Numbered from the stretch's first letter, positions 24,179 to 34,040 are shown. The stretch is DNA of 34,040 nucleotides from Promethearchaeota archaeon (GCA_048938445.1 JBHLME010000042.1:1-34040), one strand, 5' to 3'. A program made the numbers and translations. The notes: generated from the letters alone by a model not told the origin.

Positions 24179-27100
24179 TCAAATTGTTATTGAATTAAAA
24201 ATTTCAATGCCTAAGTAAACACCTAGAATAATTGCAATTATTAGGATAATTATAAAAAAAAGAGTTGTCCAAAATCTATATCTAACTGATAATTTACCTA
24301 ATTTTTCTAAACGATAAATATATATCAAAATAAGCGCTCCAAAAATTACGGCACTTACGAGTAGAACGAAGAATGAGAGTAAAAGATTAAATGTATCACT
24401 AATAATTTGTGGAACACCTAATATATAATATAGTAAGGTAATAGTAAGACTAAACCACATGATACTATAGAATCCGAATCTCCACCAGAATTGTTTTTTA
24501 GGATCTTGATCTTCCCTTGCTGGAGATATAAAATATAATAAAAAAGCAAGTAAAGCAGCACTAAGTGGTAATGAGTGATACCATAACCAATTAAGAAAGG
24601 TGAATAAAAATAAAAATAAGACCGCAAATGCTATGATTGCAAATATAGCATATATTATCTTAAAATATTTTTTAAGGAATAAAACAATTTTATGATAAGC
24701 ATTAATCAGTGCTTGTTTTATATTACTTATGAAGGTAATTAATGCTAATACGAATATTTGCCATTTCTGAATGATAATTATAATAAAATTTCTAAATAAA
24801 TTTATCAATTCTTCAAGCATGAAAATAAATGGGAACATTAAAAGGAAAAAAATAACAATTCCAATGGATAAAAAGATATTACTGAATCCAAATAATAGAG
24901 CAAGGCTTGATGATGAGGTTATCCCTAACCAATATATAAAAGCTGTAAGATGTCGAACTTTAAAGGGATTCAATACTATACCGAGAAAGATGAGAAATAC
25001 TAATGTAGATATGCTTAAAATCGTACCTATATTAAAGGTTGGATTGATAGGTTGAACAAATAATTGAAGTAATACAAAAATATCAATTGAAACAATAATC
25101 CCAATTATTAAAAAAGAACTAGAACGTATAATATTCCTAATTTTTATTTTTAAAACTTCTAGATATTTATCAATAATTAACAAGTTATAAAGGATTATAA
25201 ATGATAAAAGAAACAAGTTTAAGATGATAAATGGATTTAAAGTTGAAAAAAATAACGGCCAAGTGGTAAAATCAATATATAATGATAATAAAATACTTGA
25301 TCGAATCTTTTTCTTATTGTCCTGAACATATTTCACGAATCTAAGAAGTTTTACCAAGTATGCTATTTCAAGTGTAAAGGTGAACCATAATAAGGGAACT
25401 ATTGTGATAAAAACATCGATTAAAAATGTAAAGTAAAAAAAGGACAAATAAATCATTGAAAATATCATTAATAAAATCCAAGAACCGATTTCAAAGAAAT
25501 TTGACACTTTTCCAAGAAATTTAAAAAGATAATAATCTAGTTTCATTAAACCATGAATGATTATGCTCATGCATAATAAGATAAATGTCCAATTTACATT
25601 TCCTAGTATTAATGCATGAACTATAAAGGACAATAGTGTTATATAGAATAAATCACCAATGATATTTTGTGCTCTTATCCTTTGGTTCATTATTTTACTT
25701 GCTTTTTCCTCATCACTTTCATTTCCATCGATAAAACTATTACGGGTACAAAAGACTGAATAATTTGAATAAAATTGCATAATATTGAAAATTAGAAAAG
25801 CTAAACTAAGAAAGATTTGGTAAATAGGTATTAATAAGACTAGTAGCATGAAAGCTAATATAGAGATTATGATATAACATAAAGTTTGAATAAGATACAT
25901 GTATTTCCTGTTAAATTTCTTTAAAATTATCAATTCTATGCTAATTATCAAAAATAACACTACCTGTGAAATCATGAGACTTTCAAAAAATCCTAAGAAG
26001 AGATAAGATAATCCAAAAAAGAGGAGTGAAACTTCAAAATATATTATGAGATAAAGTATGCTAAATACTTTTTGTTTGAGCACCAGACTTTTTTGATCTG
26101 ACCGAATTGCATTGTATAAATAGAAAGGATAAAATGAAAGTATGGTTTCTATTAATATTATTAAAAATAAGGCAAATAGAGTAAGTAGATTATACAAGGA
26201 TAATGCAATTATAAGAAATATCGCAAAAAATATTTGAAAAATCGTGTAAAACAATAATAAAATAATATTCTTTTGTTTAATCTTTTCCATTCTATTCAAA
26301 ACTCGATACGTAAAATATATTATTAGATTTAAAAGAAACATTAAAAATGAAAAGATAGTTGGGAGTAAAAAGAATGAAGGAACGCCAATTAATAAATTAA
26401 AAAGATTTACTGTTAAATTTGTAAAAATTGAGGAGATATATCCACAACCTATGATAAAAATTAGATTAAATAAAATATTATTTATTAAAGCTCTTATTGA
26501 AAGGGATTTTTCACTTTTTAATCCACCATATAATTTTATTAGCGATGAAAATGCGTAAATTGTATAAAATTGCATTGATAGAAAAAAACCCAATATCAAC
26601 CAAGAAAAATCCTGTGAAATTTTAACAAGAATATAATTTAGATATAATGAAATAATTATGGAATCCGTTAAATAAGCGATAGCATTAATCGAATACATTT
26701 GTTTTCTATTGACTTTTCTTACTAACAAAATATCTAAAAATGTTAGAAAGATCAGGACTGTTAGCGATATAATAATACCTTCAAAAATACCGATGAATTG
26801 AAAACTTGGAATGAAAAATATAATGCTTACTTCAATATATAAGGAGAAATAAAAAAATGGATTTAATCTATCAAAATAATCAAATAAATAAAAATTTCCA
26901 ATGACCAATTTATCTTTTGAAATCTCTGCATATTTTATACTTAGAATGTGTAAGATTGAAAAACATGTTAAAAACTCAAGTATTTTATATTCAATGGTTA
27001 CGGGTGTCATGAATGAAATCAATAATGGTATCAAAACGGAATTAAGCAAGAAAGAACCAAAATTATGGAAATTAATTATATTTTTATTCTTAAAGAACTT

Positions 27101-30100
27101 CTTTAATCCTTGTTGTCTAGATTCTCCATAAAGAGAATTGAATATATTCACGAGAATTTGAAAAATTCCTATATATACAATGATAAAAATTAAAACCGAT
27201 ACTTGTTGGAATATTTCAATTAAAAGAAGAGCCTCTTGAATTATGAAAACAATTGGGAGGGGAAAGAAATACCATAATAAATATCTATATTTTTCAGACC
27301 AGAAATATGCGAAAGTAATGTTTATCGCACAAAATATTGCCCAATTAATAAAAATCAGAGAAGAAATCATTTGATAGCATAATGAGTAAACTGCCCAAGC
27401 AGTTCCAAATGCCATGATTACCCAAGGAATTGTTTTATTTATTTTCCGTATCAACATGTTGTAATGATTAAAAACAAATAATGAACCTCCAAAAACAGCT
27501 ATCGCTAAAAATATAGCAAAAAACAATAATTCTGGAATGATACTAAAAGTATTATAGGTTAATGATGAAAAATTAAAAATTAATAATAGGGAAATAGCGA
27601 GATGAATATATTTTTTTGGATCAGTTTTCTCAAATTTCAGATATTTTGATGAAAACAAACTAAAAGCTATAATTATACAGGATATATTAATTGAGATGGG
27701 CAAATTGTAAAATATAAAATAAAAAATAAACATGATTAATGAAAAGATTCCCATTAACAATGTAATATAAGAGAGTACCATGTATAACAACTTATTTTTT
27801 ATATTGGGAAAATATGAATATATCATGAAGAATATACTTCCAATAATTACTCCAACTGAAATGATTATTAAAGGGTGAGTTCCATTATAAAATAAAACGA
27901 CGATAAAGAAAGAAATATTGATTATAGCTAAAACCCACCACATTATAGAAACAATCAACCAACGTGTCAATTTGTATAAAACGGGCATTACTAATATTAC
28001 AGCGATGAGAACAAAAGATAACAGGGTCAAAACATTTCTTTGAATTTCATCTAAAAAGGGATTTAAAATAAATAGGTTTTGACAAATCCAAAAAACTAGA
28101 AATAGACTTTCAAACCATACAAATAAGAGACAATGGTAGAAATATTTCTTTATTTTTGTATATAAAATGGGTATGTATAATAATGTAATAATGGTCATCG
28201 TGAGGATGATTGATCCTGTAAGATTTGTATTGATTCCAAATACATTGATTGCATTTGTTATAACATCAATGCCAGCAAATCCTTGATAAATAAAAAATAC
28301 ATTTATGATAGGTAAGAAAATCCACATCCACCATCCTGTTTCCCAAATTACTTTCGAAAATTTCCATTTGTATACTCCAACAGATAAATAGAACAAAAAA
28401 ATTCCAAGATTTAAAGCAATCACAAGTGAAACTTGCCATCCCAATGGAATTGGAGAATATGTCGATAAAATGAGACCAATAAAGGTTGGCATTGAAATTA
28501 TAAGCGATAATAAAACAGGATAAAATGCTTTTTGCCTTATTTTATCTTTCAAATCCCTGTAAAGGTAAATAAATGCAATATCCGTCATGCTCAAGGTTAA
28601 TGTAAAAGTTAAAAGTGGATTGAATAATGAATACATTGGATTAATGAAGAATATTCTATAAGATAGATAACTAAATACATCAAAAATCAATAAAAGAATA
28701 CAAGGCCTTATCAACCACTTATATCTTTTATCTTTTCTTCTGTATAATGTAATTCCTGAAAATAATAAAAATATGAATAGAAAAATTGTTATATTATAAA
28801 TAATTAGAATATTTGTATAGATTTCTATAAAAACAGAAGCCCAAATCGAGCACGTGGTGTATAATAAAATCAAGTCTAAATCATTTCGCCTTTTTAAGTT
28901 GGTAATAACTGAAAATGAGATTATACCAATCAGAGAAGTTAGGAATATTATAAAATAAAATCCAATTGGAATGTAGGGTATTGTTGAAATTTGTAAGTAG
29001 ATTTCTAATAGAGTAAGAATATCAATACAAGTAATTAAAGAAAGAGACATATAGATTAGAACCCTATTAATAATAGTTCTACTTCTATTTAATATAAAAT
29101 GGATATAAACTATAAATAAAAGAAATGGAGATATTTCAGGAATAATATATAGCAGTCCAATAGTAAGAATAATATTTGAAAGAAAAAAACCATATAACTG
29201 TAAAATTGAATCGGTTTCGATAATATATTTAAAATTTAACATAAAGAAATTAAAAATCAAGAACAAATTACATGAAATGAGAATAGTTAAAACTAATGGA
29301 TAAATTAAGAAGTAATTAATATTACTAATAAAATAACCAAAAAGTCCGATATAGAAAATTGTTAAAAAAAATTCGAATATGATTAATTCTAGGATCTTAA
29401 TAATTCTTTCCTTATCCTTTGGTAGCAGTTCTAGTTTTCTCAAGTAATATCTGGTTATAGGGGTTAATAATGTAATTCCCACTATTGAGAAAGAAATTGT
29501 ATGAAAAAGAGATAAATTTAATGGAAATAGACCCAAAAGCAGAAAGATGTTTATTTTTATGAATACCCAAGAAATCAATTGAATCCAATTTTTGAGCTTT
29601 GGAACGTCTTTGGATAATACTAAACCACTAATCATGAGGATATAAAATGAAGTTAGGATTAATGAAATTAAAAAGTAAGAAGTTAGGCTTAAGATATATA
29701 AAATTAGATATGAATAATAAAAGACACATGTAATGCTAAAAGTAAATAAGACTAATACTTGAATTTTATTCGGTAATCTTGATTCGCTGCTTGTTTTCTT
29801 ATAAATATATTGAATGAGTGAAAGTATACCTAATAATATGACTAAAGTACTATTTATTGTATTCATAACTAAAAAATGGTCTAATAATAAGCCTAAAAAC
29901 ACTAATTCCATGGAAATCATTGTTGGAATGAGTAAAAAAAGTCCTAATATTACCCAACTATTTCCAATAATTATGTATTTTAAAACCTTTTGATTAAATA
30001 TTCCTCTTTTGTAAGAAAGGAAACTTGGTAAGTAGTAAAAAATAGAAGTTAAAAAAAGGGGTAATATAGTTTTAATGACTGTAGCTCCAAGAAAGAGATA

Positions 30101-32659
30101 TGAATAGAAAAATATTGCTGTTATTCCAAAAGGTAATAATACTAAAACTTGTACTCTATTAATTAAATTTATTATCTTCTTATTGATATTAATTTTTCTG
30201 CTAATGAATTGAAGGTATGAAAGAATTCCAAGTAAGAGTAATAATGTTAAATTCATAATATTCATAATACCATAATTAAAGACTTCAATAGCTATTATCG
30301 AAGGAATGAGAAGAATAAAACTCGATAAAAATAGACTATTTATCAACAATATTTTTCTCATAAAACTTTCTTTATACTTTATTTTTAACAAGTACACAAT
30401 TGGTAGATAAAGGATTAAGCAAAAAAGAGAAGTTGGAATAATCAAGATATATAAAGTATTAAAAGTCGCCATAAAAGTATAATATCCAACGATTATTGGT
30501 GCGATAAATAAAGTCAAAAACGTAATGACTTTAGTAAGTAATTCTGAAAACATTCTTTGCTTATATGACAATAAGTTTACAAGTATGCATGATATAATCA
30601 GAGAGATATATGTAGAAAGAACATTATTATCTAAAGGAGTAAGTATCTTGATTAAGAGTATTGTAGAAAAGAATAGAAAGGATAATAAAATTAGTCCAAT
30701 AAATATTATATAAGAATTTATTGCTGTATATTTAACATAATTATCATCTTTTATTTTTCCAAGCAATTTACCAAATTTAAGTTGTAAATTAAATAAAATA
30801 AAAAAGATTATCACGTCTAATAATATCCAAAATAACAATCCTGTCAGGTTATTAATGATAAAAATAATGTTAAGTGAAAGAATTGTTAAAACTTGAAAAT
30901 AACACGTATAATAACAAGTTACTATAAAAAATTGGCTTGAAAAAACTTTAGAGAGATAATTTAAATATAAAAAAACGAAAAAGAACAACGGAGTAATTGT
31001 TATTGAAATGATTAAAATAGATATAATAACATTCAAATTATGAACAATGGAGACTCTTAGATTAAATAAAGCAATAATAGCTATAAAAAGACTTAAAAAT
31101 GTTAAAATCACGCTATAATTAAAACTTTTAAGGTTTTTACCACGAAATTTTCGTGTATATAATAAATATAAAGATAATAAAAATGCACCAGCGATTATTA
31201 TTATATTTAATAAGATTAAAGAAAACAAATCTGATAAAAACATGCCTGTAGGGATGAAAAGATTATTGATGATAATTGGATAATATACAAATCCATAACC
31301 AATCATGAGATATGACCCTACAGCCATTAGATTTTGTATTAATATGACATTTTCTTTTTTAAAATACCCTATTCTGGCATAGAATTCCAAAATAAATAGA
31401 AAGGAAATGAAAAAGATAATAAATTGAACACTCAATATTAAACTTGAAAATAGGCCAAAACAAATAGAAGTCAAAAGTGCGATTGTATTAATAATTGAAA
31501 CATATCGATGTTCATTATTTCGAATGTAGCCCAATTTTACTTCATAGAGAGATAATAAATAAAAAAGTGGTGTAATCAATGCAATTTGAATGATTATAAA
31601 TATTAGATTTTGTAAAAGTGCTAATATGAAAAATGCAAAAATTAAATAGGAAATAATGAAGATTGTTGAAAAATAAGAGTTTAATTTCTTGTATTTAATT
31701 AATTTCTTATCAATATCTTCTTTTATATACTTAGATTTATCAATATTGATGATATTACTTATAATTGTATTGAAATGGAAAAAGAGGTATAATCTAATTT
31801 TCAGATAAAAAGTCAGAATTATGACTATTAAAAAAGAAATATAAAGTAAAGTGTAAAAATCAAAAAGTGGAATTAATGTGATTATAGGGAGCATAAGAAT
31901 TAAGCAACATGATAAACTCACGATTAAAATAGTGAATTTCTGCTTAAATTTTATTAAATCAACTAAAAAGCTTTTTTTATTTCTAATAGCTTCCTTGATA
32001 TCCTTACGATTCTTTTTAGTGTATAAAACTGAGAAAAAATAGAAAACGGGATTAATTATTAATAAAATGATATAAGAGAAAGTGATATATGATATGATTA
32101 TGAGAAAGATGATACTAATTAAATAATTAAAAATTATGACAAGATTATTTATTTGTTTAATAGAAAGCTTAAAACTCAGAGCCATCCTAAATTTACCTTC
32201 AGAAAGGTCAAAAATATCAATTGGTTTATAGTAATAATAAAAAAAGATGGGAAGATAAAGAATTATAAAGGATAATAATGGAAATAGGCTAAAAATAGGA
32301 AATTCTGTAAAAAATAAAGTAATTACATCACTTATAAGCGGAATTATCAATGAAAAACTTGAAATTAAGAAAAGGATATTTAACCTAGTAATTAAATTAT
32401 TTTCCTGATTTAAAAAGTATGGATTGTTACGATATTTATCACATATTTTATAAAGGAATAGAGCTACAAAAAAATACATGATGAGTCCAAAAGCAAAGGA
32501 TACATATACATTTATAACAATGCTTTGGCAAATAAAGCCTGATACAATAGCTGCTAAAACTGGTATTGCAAATAAACAAAGCGAAAACCAAAATAATTTC
32601 CAGATAAATTCCGTTCTCTTTTGATATTTTCCTTCATCATTATAGAATGTATTTTTCAT
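24179..32659 (-). CDS. Giant polytopic membrane protein (2826 aa) with internal helical repeats
   Basis: Uninterrupted 8.5-kb ORF with GGTGA RBS. Hydrophobic segments recur every ~30-35 aa along the whole length, separated by short Lys-rich loops. Confidence 0.9.
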   Translation of the reverse strand: MKNTFYNDEGKYQKRTEFIWKLFWFSLCLFAIPVLAAIVSGFICQSIVINVYVSFAFGLIMYFFVALFLYKICDKYRNNPYFLNQENNLITRLNILFLISSFSLIIPLISDVITLFFTEFPIFSLFPLLSFIILYLPIFFYYYYKPIDIFDLSEGKFRMALSFKLSIKQINNLVIIFNYLISIIFLIIISYITFSYIILLIINPVFYFFSVLYTKKNRKDIKEAIRNKKSFLVDLIKFKQKFTILIVSLSCCLILMLPIITLIPLFDFYTLLYISFLIVIILTFYLKIRLYLFFHFNTIISNIINIDKSKYIKEDIDKKLIKYKKLNSYFSTIFIISYLIFAFFILALLQNLIFIIIQIALITPLFYLLSLYEVKLGYIRNNEHRYVSIINTIALLTSICFGLFSSLILSVQFIIFFISFLFILEFYARIGYFKKENVILIQNLMAVGSYLMIGYGFVYYPIIINNLFIPTGMFLSDLFSLILLNIIIIAGAFLLSLYLLYTRKFRGKNLKSFNYSVILTFLSLFIAIIALFNLRVSIVHNLNVIISILIISITITPLFFFVFLYLNYLSKVFSSQFFIVTCYYTCYFQVLTILSLNIIFIINNLTGLLFWILLDVIIFFILFNLQLKFGKLLGKIKDDNYVKYTAINSYIIFIGLILLSFLFFSTILLIKILTPLDNNVLSTYISLIISCILVNLLSYKQRMFSELLTKVITFLTLFIAPIIVGYYTFMATFNTLYILIIPTSLFCLILYLPIVYLLKIKYKESFMRKILLINSLFLSSFILLIPSIIAIEVFNYGIMNIMNLTLLLLLGILSYLQFISRKININKKIINLINRVQVLVLLPFGITAIFFYSYLFLGATVIKTILPLFLTSIFYYLPSFLSYKRGIFNQKVLKYIIIGNSWVILGLFLLIPTMISMELVFLGLLLDHFLVMNTINSTLVILLGILSLIQYIYKKTSSESRLPNKIQVLVLFTFSITCVFYYSYLILYILSLTSYFLISLILTSFYILMISGLVLSKDVPKLKNWIQLISWVFIKINIFLLLGLFPLNLSLFHTISFSIVGITLLTPITRYYLRKLELLPKDKERIIKILELIIFEFFLTIFYIGLFGYFISNINYFLIYPLVLTILISCNLFLIFNFFMLNFKYIIETDSILQLYGFFLSNIILTIGLLYIIPEISPFLLFIVYIHFILNRSRTIINRVLIYMSLSLITCIDILTLLEIYLQISTIPYIPIGFYFIIFLTSLIGIISFSVITNLKRRNDLDLILLYTTCSIWASVFIEIYTNILIIYNITIFLFIFLLFSGITLYRRKDKRYKWLIRPCILLLIFDVFSYLSYRIFFINPMYSLFNPLLTFTLTLSMTDIAFIYLYRDLKDKIRQKAFYPVLLSLIISMPTFIGLILSTYSPIPLGWQVSLVIALNLGIFLFYLSVGVYKWKFSKVIWETGWWMWIFLPIINVFFIYQGFAGIDVITNAINVFGINTNLTGSIILTMTIITLLYIPILYTKIKKYFYHCLLFVWFESLFLVFWICQNLFILNPFLDEIQRNVLTLLSFVLIAVILVMPVLYKLTRWLIVSIMWWVLAIINISFFIVVLFYNGTHPLIIISVGVIIGSIFFMIYSYFPNIKNKLLYMVLSYITLLMGIFSLIMFIFYFIFYNLPISINISCIIIAFSLFSSKYLKFEKTDPKKYIHLAISLLLIFNFSSLTYNTFSIIPELLFFAIFLAIAVFGGSLFVFNHYNMLIRKINKTIPWVIMAFGTAWAVYSLCYQMISSLIFINWAIFCAINITFAYFWSEKYRYLLWYFFPLPIVFIIQEALLLIEIFQQVSVLIFIIVYIGIFQILVNIFNSLYGESRQQGLKKFFKNKNIINFHNFGSFLLNSVLIPLLISFMTPVTIEYKILEFLTCFSILHILSIKYAEISKDKLVIGNFYLFDYFDRLNPFFYFSLYIEVSIIFFIPSFQFIGIFEGIIISLTVLIFLTFLDILLVRKVNRKQMYSINAIAYLTDSIIISLYLNYILVKISQDFSWLILGFFLSMQFYTIYAFSSLIKLYGGLKSEKSLSIRALINNILFNLIFIIGCGYISSIFTNLTVNLFNLLIGVPSFFLLPTIFSFLMFLLNLIIYFTYRVLNRMEKIKQKNIILLLFYTIFQIFFAIFLIIALSLYNLLTLFALFLIILIETILSFYPFYLYNAIRSDQKSLVLKQKVFSILYLIIYFEVSLLFFGLSYLFLGFFESLMISQVVLFLIISIELIILKKFNRKYMYLIQTLCYIIISILAFMLLVLLIPIYQIFLSLAFLIFNIMQFYSNYSVFCTRNSFIDGNESDEEKASKIMNQRIRAQNIIGDLFYITLLSFIVHALILGNVNWTFILLCMSIIIHGLMKLDYYLFKFLGKVSNFFEIGSWILLMIFSMIYLSFFYFTFLIDVFITIVPLLWFTFTLEIAYLVKLLRFVKYVQDNKKKIRSSILLSLYIDFTTWPLFFSTLNPFIILNLFLLSFIILYNLLIIDKYLEVLKIKIRNIIRSSSFLIIGIIVSIDIFVLLQLFVQPINPTFNIGTILSISTLVFLIFLGIVLNPFKVRHLTAFIYWLGITSSSSLALLFGFSNIFLSIGIVIFFLLMFPFIFMLEELINLFRNFIIIIIQKWQIFVLALITFISNIKQALINAYHKIVLFLKKYFKIIYAIFAIIAFAVLFLFLFTFLNWLWYHSLPLSAALLAFLLYFISPAREDQDPKKQFWWRFGFYSIMWFSLTITLLYYILGVPQIISDTFNLLLSFFVLLVSAVIFGALILIYIYRLEKLGKLSVRYRFWTTLFFIIILIIAIILGVYLGIEIFNSITI

Positions 32660-32912
32660 TCAGATTTCACCCATAATTAAATAAGGAAAATGAACCTATT
32701 AAAGAGATCTAAGAGACTCTTAATATATAAAGCAATAGTAGTCCAATTTTTGTTTTTATAGTCATGTAATATAAATCTATATGATTAACATTATTATACG
32801 TATGATTTGGTTTTAAATATTTTGAATTTTATTTAAAAAAATTACGAGATATTTAGCAATAGTTGCCTTTTCGATACTTTTTTATTTAATGAACATCTAT
32901 CATTAATTAATA

Positions 32913-33002
32913 ATGGTCTTTCGTAATAATACTTCTAAAAACACTTGGTTTGCACGCGTATTAGGTGTAGTGTTAGTATTAGTAGTAGTATTATTACTCT
33001 GA
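32913..33002 (+). CDS. Val/Leu-rich 29-aa leader peptide (uORF)
   Basis: MVFRNNTSKNTWFARVLGVVLVLVVVLLL*. 13 of the last 14 codons are Val or Leu. TATA-like TTTATTTA at 32881-32888 lies about 25 nt upstream, as for a leaderless transcript. Confidence 0.6.
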   Translation: MVFRNNTSKNTWFARVLGVVLVLVVVLLL

Positions 33003-33093
33003 GCGAGTAAATCCTAATGACCTTTTTCTTATAAAATACTCACGGATTTGCTTGCTGGTGTGAAACATTATATTAAAGAGGTCATGATTTTTT
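32994..33093 (+). promoter_or_regulatory. Attenuator-like alternative hairpins followed by a U-tract
   Basis: 32994-32999 pairs with 33005-33010; 33002-33014 pairs with 33044-33056 (13 bp); 33017-33027 pairs with 33075-33085 (11 bp); T6 at 33088-33093. Confidence 0.55.
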
Positions 33094-33136
33094 ACTGCAT
33101 AGAGATCAAGAATAAAAATGGAGGTAAAAATAGAGC

Positions 33137-33274
33137 ATGACAGCAATCGTTAAAGAAGAGAAGAAAATTATTGCCCAAAATGAATTTGATATTACAATCA
33201 TAAATATGATGGATGTCAGTAAGTTTCCCATGCCCGCAGAAATGTTTATTTCTGAAAAGGATATCGCATGGTAA
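33137..33274 (+). CDS. 45-aa small protein of unknown function
   Basis: Not in the ORF track. GGAGGT RBS at 33120-33125; MTAIVKEEKKIIAQNEFDITIINMMDVSKFPMPAEMFISEKDIAW*. Confidence 0.7.
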   Translation: MTAIVKEEKKIIAQNEFDITIINMMDVSKFPMPAEMFISEKDIAW

Positions 33275-33493
33275 GAATTAAAAAATATATTGGCATTTAC
33301 TAATCAATTACAGTCAATAAATTAAAGTATTAATGTAATTATAATTATCAAGTATTCAGATTTTAAAAATATTAAAATTTAGGGCTATAATACTAAAGTA
33401 TCACAACTTTTATATATTCATTTCAGTAATAATTTTACAGATTAAAACTAATTACTTTTTTCAAACATAATAAATATAGAGGTGCATTAGAAA

Positions 33494-33694
33494 ATGGAAA
33501 ATTTATCAACAGATTTCTTTAAAAAAGATGAAGGTGATGGAGATGCTGAAAAAGAATCTCTAGAACAAATTAACGATGAATTAATATTAGAAAGATCAAG
33601 TAAAGAATTCAAACCTTCGGGACTTTACACGCAAATCGAAGATGAAATAAAGATGTCACGCCTCAGAAAAAAGTATCGAAAATTTTCTCCTTAA
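33494..33694 (+). CDS. Small hypothetical protein (66 aa)
   Basis: GAGGTG RBS upstream; acidic N-terminus and basic C-terminus. Confidence 0.7.
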   Translation: MENLSTDFFKKDEGDGDAEKESLEQINDELILERSSKEFKPSGLYTQIEDEIKMSRLRKKYRKFSP

Positions 33695-33780
33695 ATCTCT
33701 TTTTCATTAGGAGATATTTAAAAGAATATGTTATTTTAACATGATAAATCTTAACCCTCTTCAAATATAAAATTGAAATC

Positions 33781-34040
33781 ATGTTAAAGAAAATTATGTC
33801 GGATCTGTTAATTCATAAAGTATTGAATTCAGAAAAGAATTTTCAGGAATTAAAATTAAAAAATGCTAATTATAATACCCTCAAATCGTATAATAACAAG
33901 ATATATACAGGGATGTCGATCGGAGGTTCGCACCAATGGAATTATAATAATGGTAAATGGTTTGAGATTAAAAAAACACCTGATAAATGGGTGTTTTCTT
34001 TTAATAGCGTGAAAACTCGTTTAAATGCTGCACCTGTTAA
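33781..34040 (+). CDS. Conserved-looking hypothetical protein, truncated by the window end
   Basis: Open frame from ATG 33781 to the end, containing YNTLKSYNNKIYTGMSIGGSHQWNYNNGKWFEIKKTPDKW. Function not recognised. Confidence 0.7.
   Translation, partial: MLKKIMSDLLIHKVLNSEKNFQELKLKNANYNTLKSYNNKIYTGMSIGGSHQWNYNNGKWFEIKKTPDKWVFSFNSVKTRLNAAPV

Follow-up and report, generated by a model that had tools for sequence, protein, structure and literature searches.

A candidate family of ribosome-read leader-peptide sensors ahead of leucyl-tRNA synthetase and small-protein genes in one family of Promethearchaeota

Ribosome-mediated attenuation is a textbook bacterial mechanism that depends on transcription being coupled to translation, and ilvL, ivbL and leuL are its enterobacterial examples for branched-chain amino-acid operons, acting as leader-peptide transcription attenuators. 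Whether an archaeal locus of similar outward appearance could work in the same way is the question raised by a stretch of 34,040 nucleotides from a Promethearchaeota archaeon (GCA_048938445.1 JBHLME010000042.1:1-34040; this whole stretch is referred to below as the window), in which a first-pass annotation had proposed a Val/Leu-rich leader frame, a set of competing RNA helices and a U-tract terminator ahead of a gene for 45 amino acids. Comparison with related loci leads us to favour, with confidence a little above even, the reading that the locus belongs, as one copy among many, to a set of leader-peptide attenuators, leaders read by the ribosome, that occurs in one Promethearchaeota family. 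Comparative support is strong for the putative sensor half, a leader peptide read by the ribosome; transcription termination as the output, translation of the upstream frame (uORF) and the direction of control are what we infer.

All elements described in the first-pass annotation were found where it had placed them, namely the uORF, the small 1:2 hairpin, the 13-bp and 11-bp helices, the T6 tract, the 45-aa ORF and the TATA-like box, and two helices beyond that description, P1 and PC, were added (Table 1). The uORF peptide is MVFRNNTSKNTWFARVLGVVLVLVVVLLL, and its final 14 residues comprise seven Val, six Leu and one Gly. Val and Leu are thus the only hydrophobic residues of the tail, Ile and Phe being absent though they are the dominant hydrophobics in the genome; under the composition of the neighbouring membrane protein, the probability that 13 hydrophobic residues would all be Val or Leu is about 6e-6. 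The 1:2 hairpin is the same in a congener (L010) and is not recognisable by eye in other genera, so that this part of the earlier description holds for the genus. Two further reading frames lie close by. An 18-codon frame at 33084-33140 (+) starts from an ATG within the PB 3' arm and closes with a TGA that shares bases with the start codon of the 45-aa ORF (ATGA); it is probably due to chance, its own ATG being missing in the congener. On the opposite strand, a 2826-aa ORF (24179-32659, -) has its end about 250 nt 5' of the leader; almost its entire sequence is made up of hydrophobic segments in which Ile, Leu and Phe abound.

Table 1. Parts of the leader and the small gene behind it, with positions counted from the first letter of the window
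Feature	Position	Strand	Remarks
TATA-like box, T/A-rich	32880-32889	+	read from sequence; 24-33 nt 5' of the uORF ATG
Leader frame (uORF), 29 codons	32913-33002	+	ATG 32913, stop TGA 33000-33002; Val/Leu run at end
P1 5' arm	32923-32933	+	uORF codons 4-7; 11 perfect pairs with 32987-32997
P1 3' arm	32987-32997	+	last Val/Leu codons of uORF
Small 1:2 hairpin	32994-33010	+	TTACTC 32994-32999 / GAGTAA 33005-33010; stop codon in loop
PA 5' arm (segment 2)	33002-33014	+	first base is last base of stop codon
PA 3' arm (segment 3)	33044-33056	+	13-bp helix with 33002-33014, two G-U pairs
PB 5' arm	33017-33027	+	pyrimidine-rich, contains U5 run
PB 3' arm	33075-33085	+	purine-rich; 11-bp helix with 33017-33027
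PC 5' arm	32997-33011	+	outer extension of PB hairpin; spans stop codon and PA 5' arm bases
PC 3' arm	33091-33104	+	13 pairs with 32997-33011; takes in last three T of T6
T6 tract	33088-33093	+	two bases past PB; candidate termination signal
Shine-Dalgarno-like GGAGGT	33120-33125	+	5' of 45-aa ORF
45-aa ORF	33137-33274	+	conserved small protein, ends ...IAW

The 45-aa protein gave no match in Pfam, the PDB profile or the ESM Atlas, and that its gene has no known tie to Val or Leu counts against the preferred reading. An orthologue with 64% identity occurs in the congener, where the neighbouring genes are the same, and weaker relatives occur in additional genera. A profile of the protein finds it in 35 of the order's 154 genomes, every one of them from a single family (34/134 there and 0/19 elsewhere). 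Promoter, frame, helices and small gene are kept together in the congener and in 16 further loci from eight more genera, which gives 18 loci in 9 genera; the ~230 nt upstream of the small gene in these loci hold a TATA-like box, a frame of 23-29 codons that opens at a conserved ATG and closes on Val/Leu, the helices PA and PB and, 5' of the small ORF, a Shine-Dalgarno (SD) motif of the form GGAGG/GAGGT. Of the features on whose conservation the attenuator proposal had been staked, the Val/Leu run is kept in these loci, and the stop position and the covariation of the helices are kept in the wider family. Some relatives in one genus carry the small gene without the leader.

The leader itself is distributed more widely than this one small gene. 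Within one Promethearchaeota (Asgard) family, a covariance model of the leader core, R1, matches 112 of the 135 genomes, which often carry two to four copies each, and on an even sample of the phylum it matched 18 of 25 genomes of the leader-bearing family and none of 125 genomes from 26 other families. No leader of this kind was found at six leucyl-tRNA synthetase (LeuRS) genes in four genomes of a neighbouring family, or at the source genome's own LeuRS gene, which is of the bacterial type. The source genome holds three R1 matches at E 6e-4 or better, on which nhmmer with a broader profile agrees, and one weak match at E 0.5. The 143 copies studied comprise the 18 small-gene loci, loci from R1 matches and 100 regions taken from match lists; they are a part of the R1 matches, with 44 further matches in genomes of the family and some of the listed ones lying outside the sample.

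That the gene downstream in the window is not an ilv or leu enzyme had been entered as a caveat, which is true of this copy and is answered by its sister copies. Downstream ORFs were clustered, ten representatives were scanned against NCBIfam and Pfam, and residues were counted in the last 12 of each frame. LeuRS lies behind 59 copies, and Leu is dominant in 59/59 of them, with a mean of 6.9 residues. These synthetases belong to three non-orthologous types (53 archaeal type A, 3 archaeal type B and 3 bacterial type), as sorted by N-terminal motif, a single representative per type having been scanned against NCBIfam. The tails of the LeuRS leaders draw on all six Leu codons, TTR and CTN codons both occurring in 59/59, and this mixture of synonymous codons indicates that the amino acid is kept, not the nucleotide string. 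Ile is dominant in 14 of the 17 copies (with two ties) that precede an FrhB-like protein; this FrhB/FdhB-like iron-sulfur protein of 474-493 aa stands regularly behind Ile-rich leaders (L157, L164, L183 and 14 more) and has a C-terminal TrmB-type DNA-binding domain in one of three copies scanned. Val is dominant in all four copies ahead of an acyl-CoA dehydrogenase (ACAD), and Ala in all three copies, from three genera, ahead of a class-IV (branched-chain type) aminotransferase. Leu or Val dominates ahead of the 45-aa gene family (33 copies), and no clear run is seen ahead of the family of the window's 66-aa ORF (22 copies). The search for leaders rich in other amino acids, which had been put forward together with the original proposal, thus yielded Leu, Ile, Val and Ala classes.

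Differently tailed leader copies stand side by side in single genomes, the source genome included. Its three leaders are the Val/Leu copy of the 45-aa gene, a Val-rich frame 5' of a 413-aa acyl-CoA dehydrogenase (L124, G000:C117:18685-18808, -) and an Ala-rich frame 5' of a branched-chain-type class-IV aminotransferase (L125, G000:C71:17027-17161, -), and the two latter bear directly on the caveat about ilv and leu enzymes. The best NCBIfam match of the 413-aa protein, below cut-off, is acryloyl-CoA reductase.

An attenuator needs RNA folds that compete with one another, and the folding of the window copy is consistent with such a competition. The 116-nt core has a folding energy of -28.1 kcal/mol, compared with -17.7 +/- 3.0 kcal/mol for its shuffles (z -3.5; 0/200 shuffles as good), and the 241-nt leader gives z -2.8, with 2 of 200 shuffles as good. 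PA and PB appear in alternative minimum-energy folds, one in the core and the other in the leader. P1 is seen in the centroid fold of the 241-nt leader and in a minimum-energy fold, and it is found in nearly all homologues. PA and PC are mutually exclusive, because the same nucleotides (33002-33011) are used by both; the coexistence of the two long helices as an H-type pseudoknot, which had been considered earlier, could therefore concern at most the inner PB helix and is impossible for PC. The PA state and the PB/PC state lie 2-3 kcal/mol apart, in the window and as a family average, and the minimum-energy folds of the homologues divide between the two.

Evolutionary evidence for the helices was sought by several routes, since RNAalifold on plain MAFFT alignments recovered PB only; duplex energies, the comparison of cognate with non-cognate arms and an Infernal alignment were used for this reason. 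In the Infernal alignment of 96 copies (A4), PA and PB together have 80.7% paired cells, compared with 73.9% in shuffles, 199 cells with both sides changed, compared with 86.5, and a covariation score of 0.284, compared with 0.174 (0/500 shuffles in each case), while slid controls score 0.09-0.15. Changes on both sides occur in 9/11 pairs of the main PA helix and in 9/11 PB pairs. The cognate-arm test, which is alignment-free and was run in fixed windows on 23 class-by-genus representatives, found cognate arms to be more stable than non-cognate ones for P1 (-16.5 vs -11.1 kcal/mol), PA (-18.7 vs -12.0 kcal/mol), PB (-13.7 vs -9.6 kcal/mol) and PC (-12.5 vs -8.5 kcal/mol), with 0/10000 permutations for every helix and 0/5000 for PC in a further run. 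PC is present in all leader classes, and the PA duplex energy is between -17 and -29 kcal/mol in 18/18 loci. Covariation and cognate-arm tests are thus both positive for the helices that had been proposed to compete as 2:3 and 3:4. A small stem formed by TCAC/GTGA around the PA 3' arm (PD), covarying by eye, was unsupported, with 2321/5000 and 2608/10000 permutations as good, and was dropped.

On the proposed mechanism, transcription would start a few bases 5' of the ATG, and the 29-codon frame would be translated as a leaderless mini-gene during RNA synthesis, its Val and Leu codons gauging the supply of charged tRNA. When supply is ample, a ribosome at the stop would cover 33002-33014 and block their pairing with 33044-33056 (PA), whereupon the PB hairpin would form, and on departure of the ribosome PB would zip outward into PC, the putative off form. 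In this genus PB followed by U6 would then bring about premature termination near 33092-33094. With the ribosome held up at least five codons short of the stop, the bases beyond the stop would be free, PA would form first and delay PB, and the polymerase would continue into the 45-aa gene. The assignment of PA as on and PB/PC as off would follow from the feedback logic of a synthetase gene, which stalling must switch on.

Two results speak to the masking step of this scheme. In almost every copy, whatever its class, the PA 5' arm begins between -3 and +2 relative to the stop codon, as expected from the claim that the stop is placed to mask segment 2. In ribosome-mask folding of the window, at the point where the PB 3' arm has just emerged, P(PA) is 0.96-1.0 with the ribosome absent or stalled at Val codons, and P(PB) is 1.0 once the ribosome sits on the last Leu codon or the stop, which reproduces the logic first suggested for the locus, a ribosome at the stop giving 3:4 and a stall giving 2:3. 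For the family as a whole, we lean, by a modest measure, towards an amino-acid-specific leader-peptide regulon (Leu, Ile, Val and Ala) that would read tRNA charging from the position of the ribosome nearest the polymerase. Such attenuation would be a first for archaea, with an output suited to their eukaryote-like polymerase and not reliant on the bacterial hairpin-plus-U terminator.

The nature of that output is the point at which the window and the family part ways. With PB closing at 33085 and U6 reaching to 33093, the arrangement has the geometry of a bacterial terminator except for the long interior of the hairpin (47 nt), and a simple terminator scan of the window returned 0 sites. The U-tract terminator of the original proposal finds its signal in this genus, T6 here and T9 at the same position in the congener, but does not extend to the family: at least five T follow PB in 13 of the 86 copies tested, where about 7 are expected by chance, and a T-tract follows the hairpin in 1/31 LeuRS leaders, on which grounds a family-wide T-tract terminator was rejected. 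Half of the T6 tract, bases 33091-33093, also pairs in PC and may be kept for that purpose. Archaeal termination is reported to need a U-tract and no hairpin (PMC7515710), and a hairpin-gated terminator is to that extent unproven for the archaeal polymerase.

It is conceivable, with a probability well short of even, that the same ribosome-read sensor has another output, possibly of opposite direction, acting through translation start, through factor-dependent (FttA/aCPSF1-type) termination where a U-rich strand is exposed, or through decay of the RNA. The T-tract missing after PB in most copies favours such an output, as does the stretch of 25-55 nt from the long hairpin to the LeuRS start, which is A-rich and without T-runs. 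The PB 5' arm, in turn, is U-rich, holds the most conserved bases (T>=5 in 66/86 copies) and is single-stranded in the PA state, as termination on an exposed strand would have it. Folding of the full-length window RNA in the PA state pairs the PB 3' arm and the U-run with the SD/start region of the 45-aa ORF, a predicted pairing that would make PA the off state for translation of this ORF, and PB/PC is the state with the slightly more accessible start region in three classes (small-gene, FrhB and ACAD). Control at the start codon sits less well with the LeuRS leaders, however, where start-region accessibility is equal in the two states (0.57 vs 0.58; 15/30 each way), and an opposite direction sits less well with the synthetase feedback logic, which would want a stall to mean on. 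Scored across 81 loci of the family, with 5 loci and those with PA weaker than -13 kcal/mol left out, occlusion of the downstream start differed in no consistent way between the states.

Whichever output applies, the preferred reading of a ribosome-read leader depends on the frame. A frame running from ATG to stop over 18-40 codons, with its stop at +8 to +36 of the model start, is present in 141/143 copies, one of the misses being cut by a contig end; among the first 96 copies it is present in 94, compared with 153 of 1920 shuffles (8%). The frames of these 96 copies have ten different lengths of 20-35 codons, and the other two frames are open across the same span in 0/94 and 12/94. In about 89 of the 140 copies compared, a TATA-like hexamer has its first base 29-34 nt 5' of the ATG; a purine-rich stretch stands ahead of it, and it is accompanied by a conserved TTATAATAATG context. 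The TATA-ATG spacing places the transcript start a few bases 5' of the ATG, as in leaderless archaeal messages, and thus implies, as far as sequence can, a transcript that is leaderless or nearly so. With pN/pS at about 1 whichever frame is read, the ratio does not tell the frames apart and the peptide sequence shows no conservation, and Asp and Glu occur within the tail in several genera; this fits a frame that would matter as a frame and not as a protein. In a subclass of genus g11 (L158, L162, L173, L188, L191, L195, L210, L254, L256, L264), the stop of the Val/Leu frame is lost, and the only frame passing the above rule is a shifted one, which ends ~8 nt later inside the PA 5' arm and has a conserved non-hydrophobic end without a hydrophobic run.

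An RNA-only switch, either a riboswitch or a tRNA- or protein-binding leader, in which the open frame would be a by-product of P1 and descent, appears improbable in the light of these data, though some of them can be read its way. P1 forces complementary AAT/ACT and AGT/ATT strings, which are read as Asn/Thr and Val/Leu, and P1 alone would favour GTA/TTA in the last 4-5 codons of the uORF, which counts against the sensor reading; the pN/pS of about 1 in every frame agrees with a frame of no consequence. Such a by-product is hard to reconcile, however, with a frame that survives indels through ten lengths with the other frames closed, with class-specific residues that reach upstream of P1 and use synonymous codons, with a stop position fixed relative to PA, or with a promoter spacing that places the ATG at the 5' end. 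When 32000-34040 was searched with cmscan against the whole of Rfam up to E 10, the four matches were weak and unrelated and none was a T-box, neither the Stem I/specifier loop nor the T-box sequence of the Rfam model having a match in this interval. That the uORF is instead a functional hydrophobic micro-protein with unrelated RNA helices (the membrane peptide or type I toxin of an earlier caveat) is very improbable, for although its C-terminal 14-16 residues are hydrophobic and peptides of this small, hydrophobic kind are common, there is no conservation of its sequence, charged residues interrupt the tail in several genera, the window's tail holds only Val and Leu in a genome whose hydrophobic residues are dominated by Ile and Phe, and the tail's amino acid changes with the downstream gene.

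As a ribosome-read leader, the locus resembles the bacterial ilvL (ilvGMEDA), ivbL (ilvBN) and leuL leaders in having a short frame with a codon run for what would be the relevant amino acids, a stop set such that a terminating ribosome would cover the anti-terminator 5' arm, and mutually exclusive helices; as ilvE is part of ilvGMEDA, so a branched-chain-type aminotransferase is among the putatively regulated genes of the source genome. Unlike these leaders, it has an archaeal host, a TATA promoter and a predicted leaderless start, and the archaeal copies carry an additional helix, P1, inside the frame. Their off hairpin encloses segment 3 instead of sharing it and extends over the stop codon (PC), most copies are without a U-tract, and most targets are small proteins without assigned function, not biosynthetic operons.

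Attenuators 5' of synthetase genes offer a further comparison, for the LeuRS class, and one study (PMC1262725) describes pheM-pheST of gamma-proteobacteria and predicted attenuators of leuS and trpS in Streptomyces. These share with the 59 archaeal copies with Leu runs before leuS a leader peptide of cognate codons ahead of the synthetase; they differ in that the terminator hairpin is followed by poly-U, whereas a T-run is present in 1/31 archaeal leuS leaders, and in that a synthetase lies downstream, whereas the window copy precedes the 45-aa gene. That study also holds a caution, the similar-looking ilvB leader of Streptomyces coelicolor, which was unresponsive to codon changes and did not act like a classical attenuator (PMC1262725). 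T-box riboswitches of Firmicutes are alike in gauging tRNA charging for synthetase and amino-acid genes by means of competing helices, but they bind uncharged tRNA directly without a translated frame, whereas the archaeal leaders have a frame (PMC1262725). A full-text literature search found no archaeal or Asgard leader-peptide attenuation among the papers that it listed, and a short review names attenuation only as a general role of coupling (PMC13681488).

If the attenuator reading is true, coupling in the prokaryotes most closely related to eukaryotes would be tight enough to serve gene control, and an RNA fold would act on the archaeal polymerase or its termination factor and offer a natural way into that question. 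With more than 140 natural variants and four codon runs, the hypothesis is open to direct testing. The 45-aa and 66-aa families and the FrhB-like/TrmB protein would likewise be assigned to a response to branched-chain amino acids. The 66-aa ORF of the window (33494-33694, +) belongs to a second small-protein family, with the motif ...EDExKxxYLRKKY, which is linked to the 45-aa family by BLAST and in other genomes has its own leader copy, whose frame is often without a hydrophobic run. The weak R1 match of the source genome (L126, G000:C206:14546-14632, +; E 0.5, no nhmmer confirmation) contains one hairpin and a frame with a Val/Leu run at its end, and lies directly 5' of a methylmalonyl-CoA-mutase-family gene.
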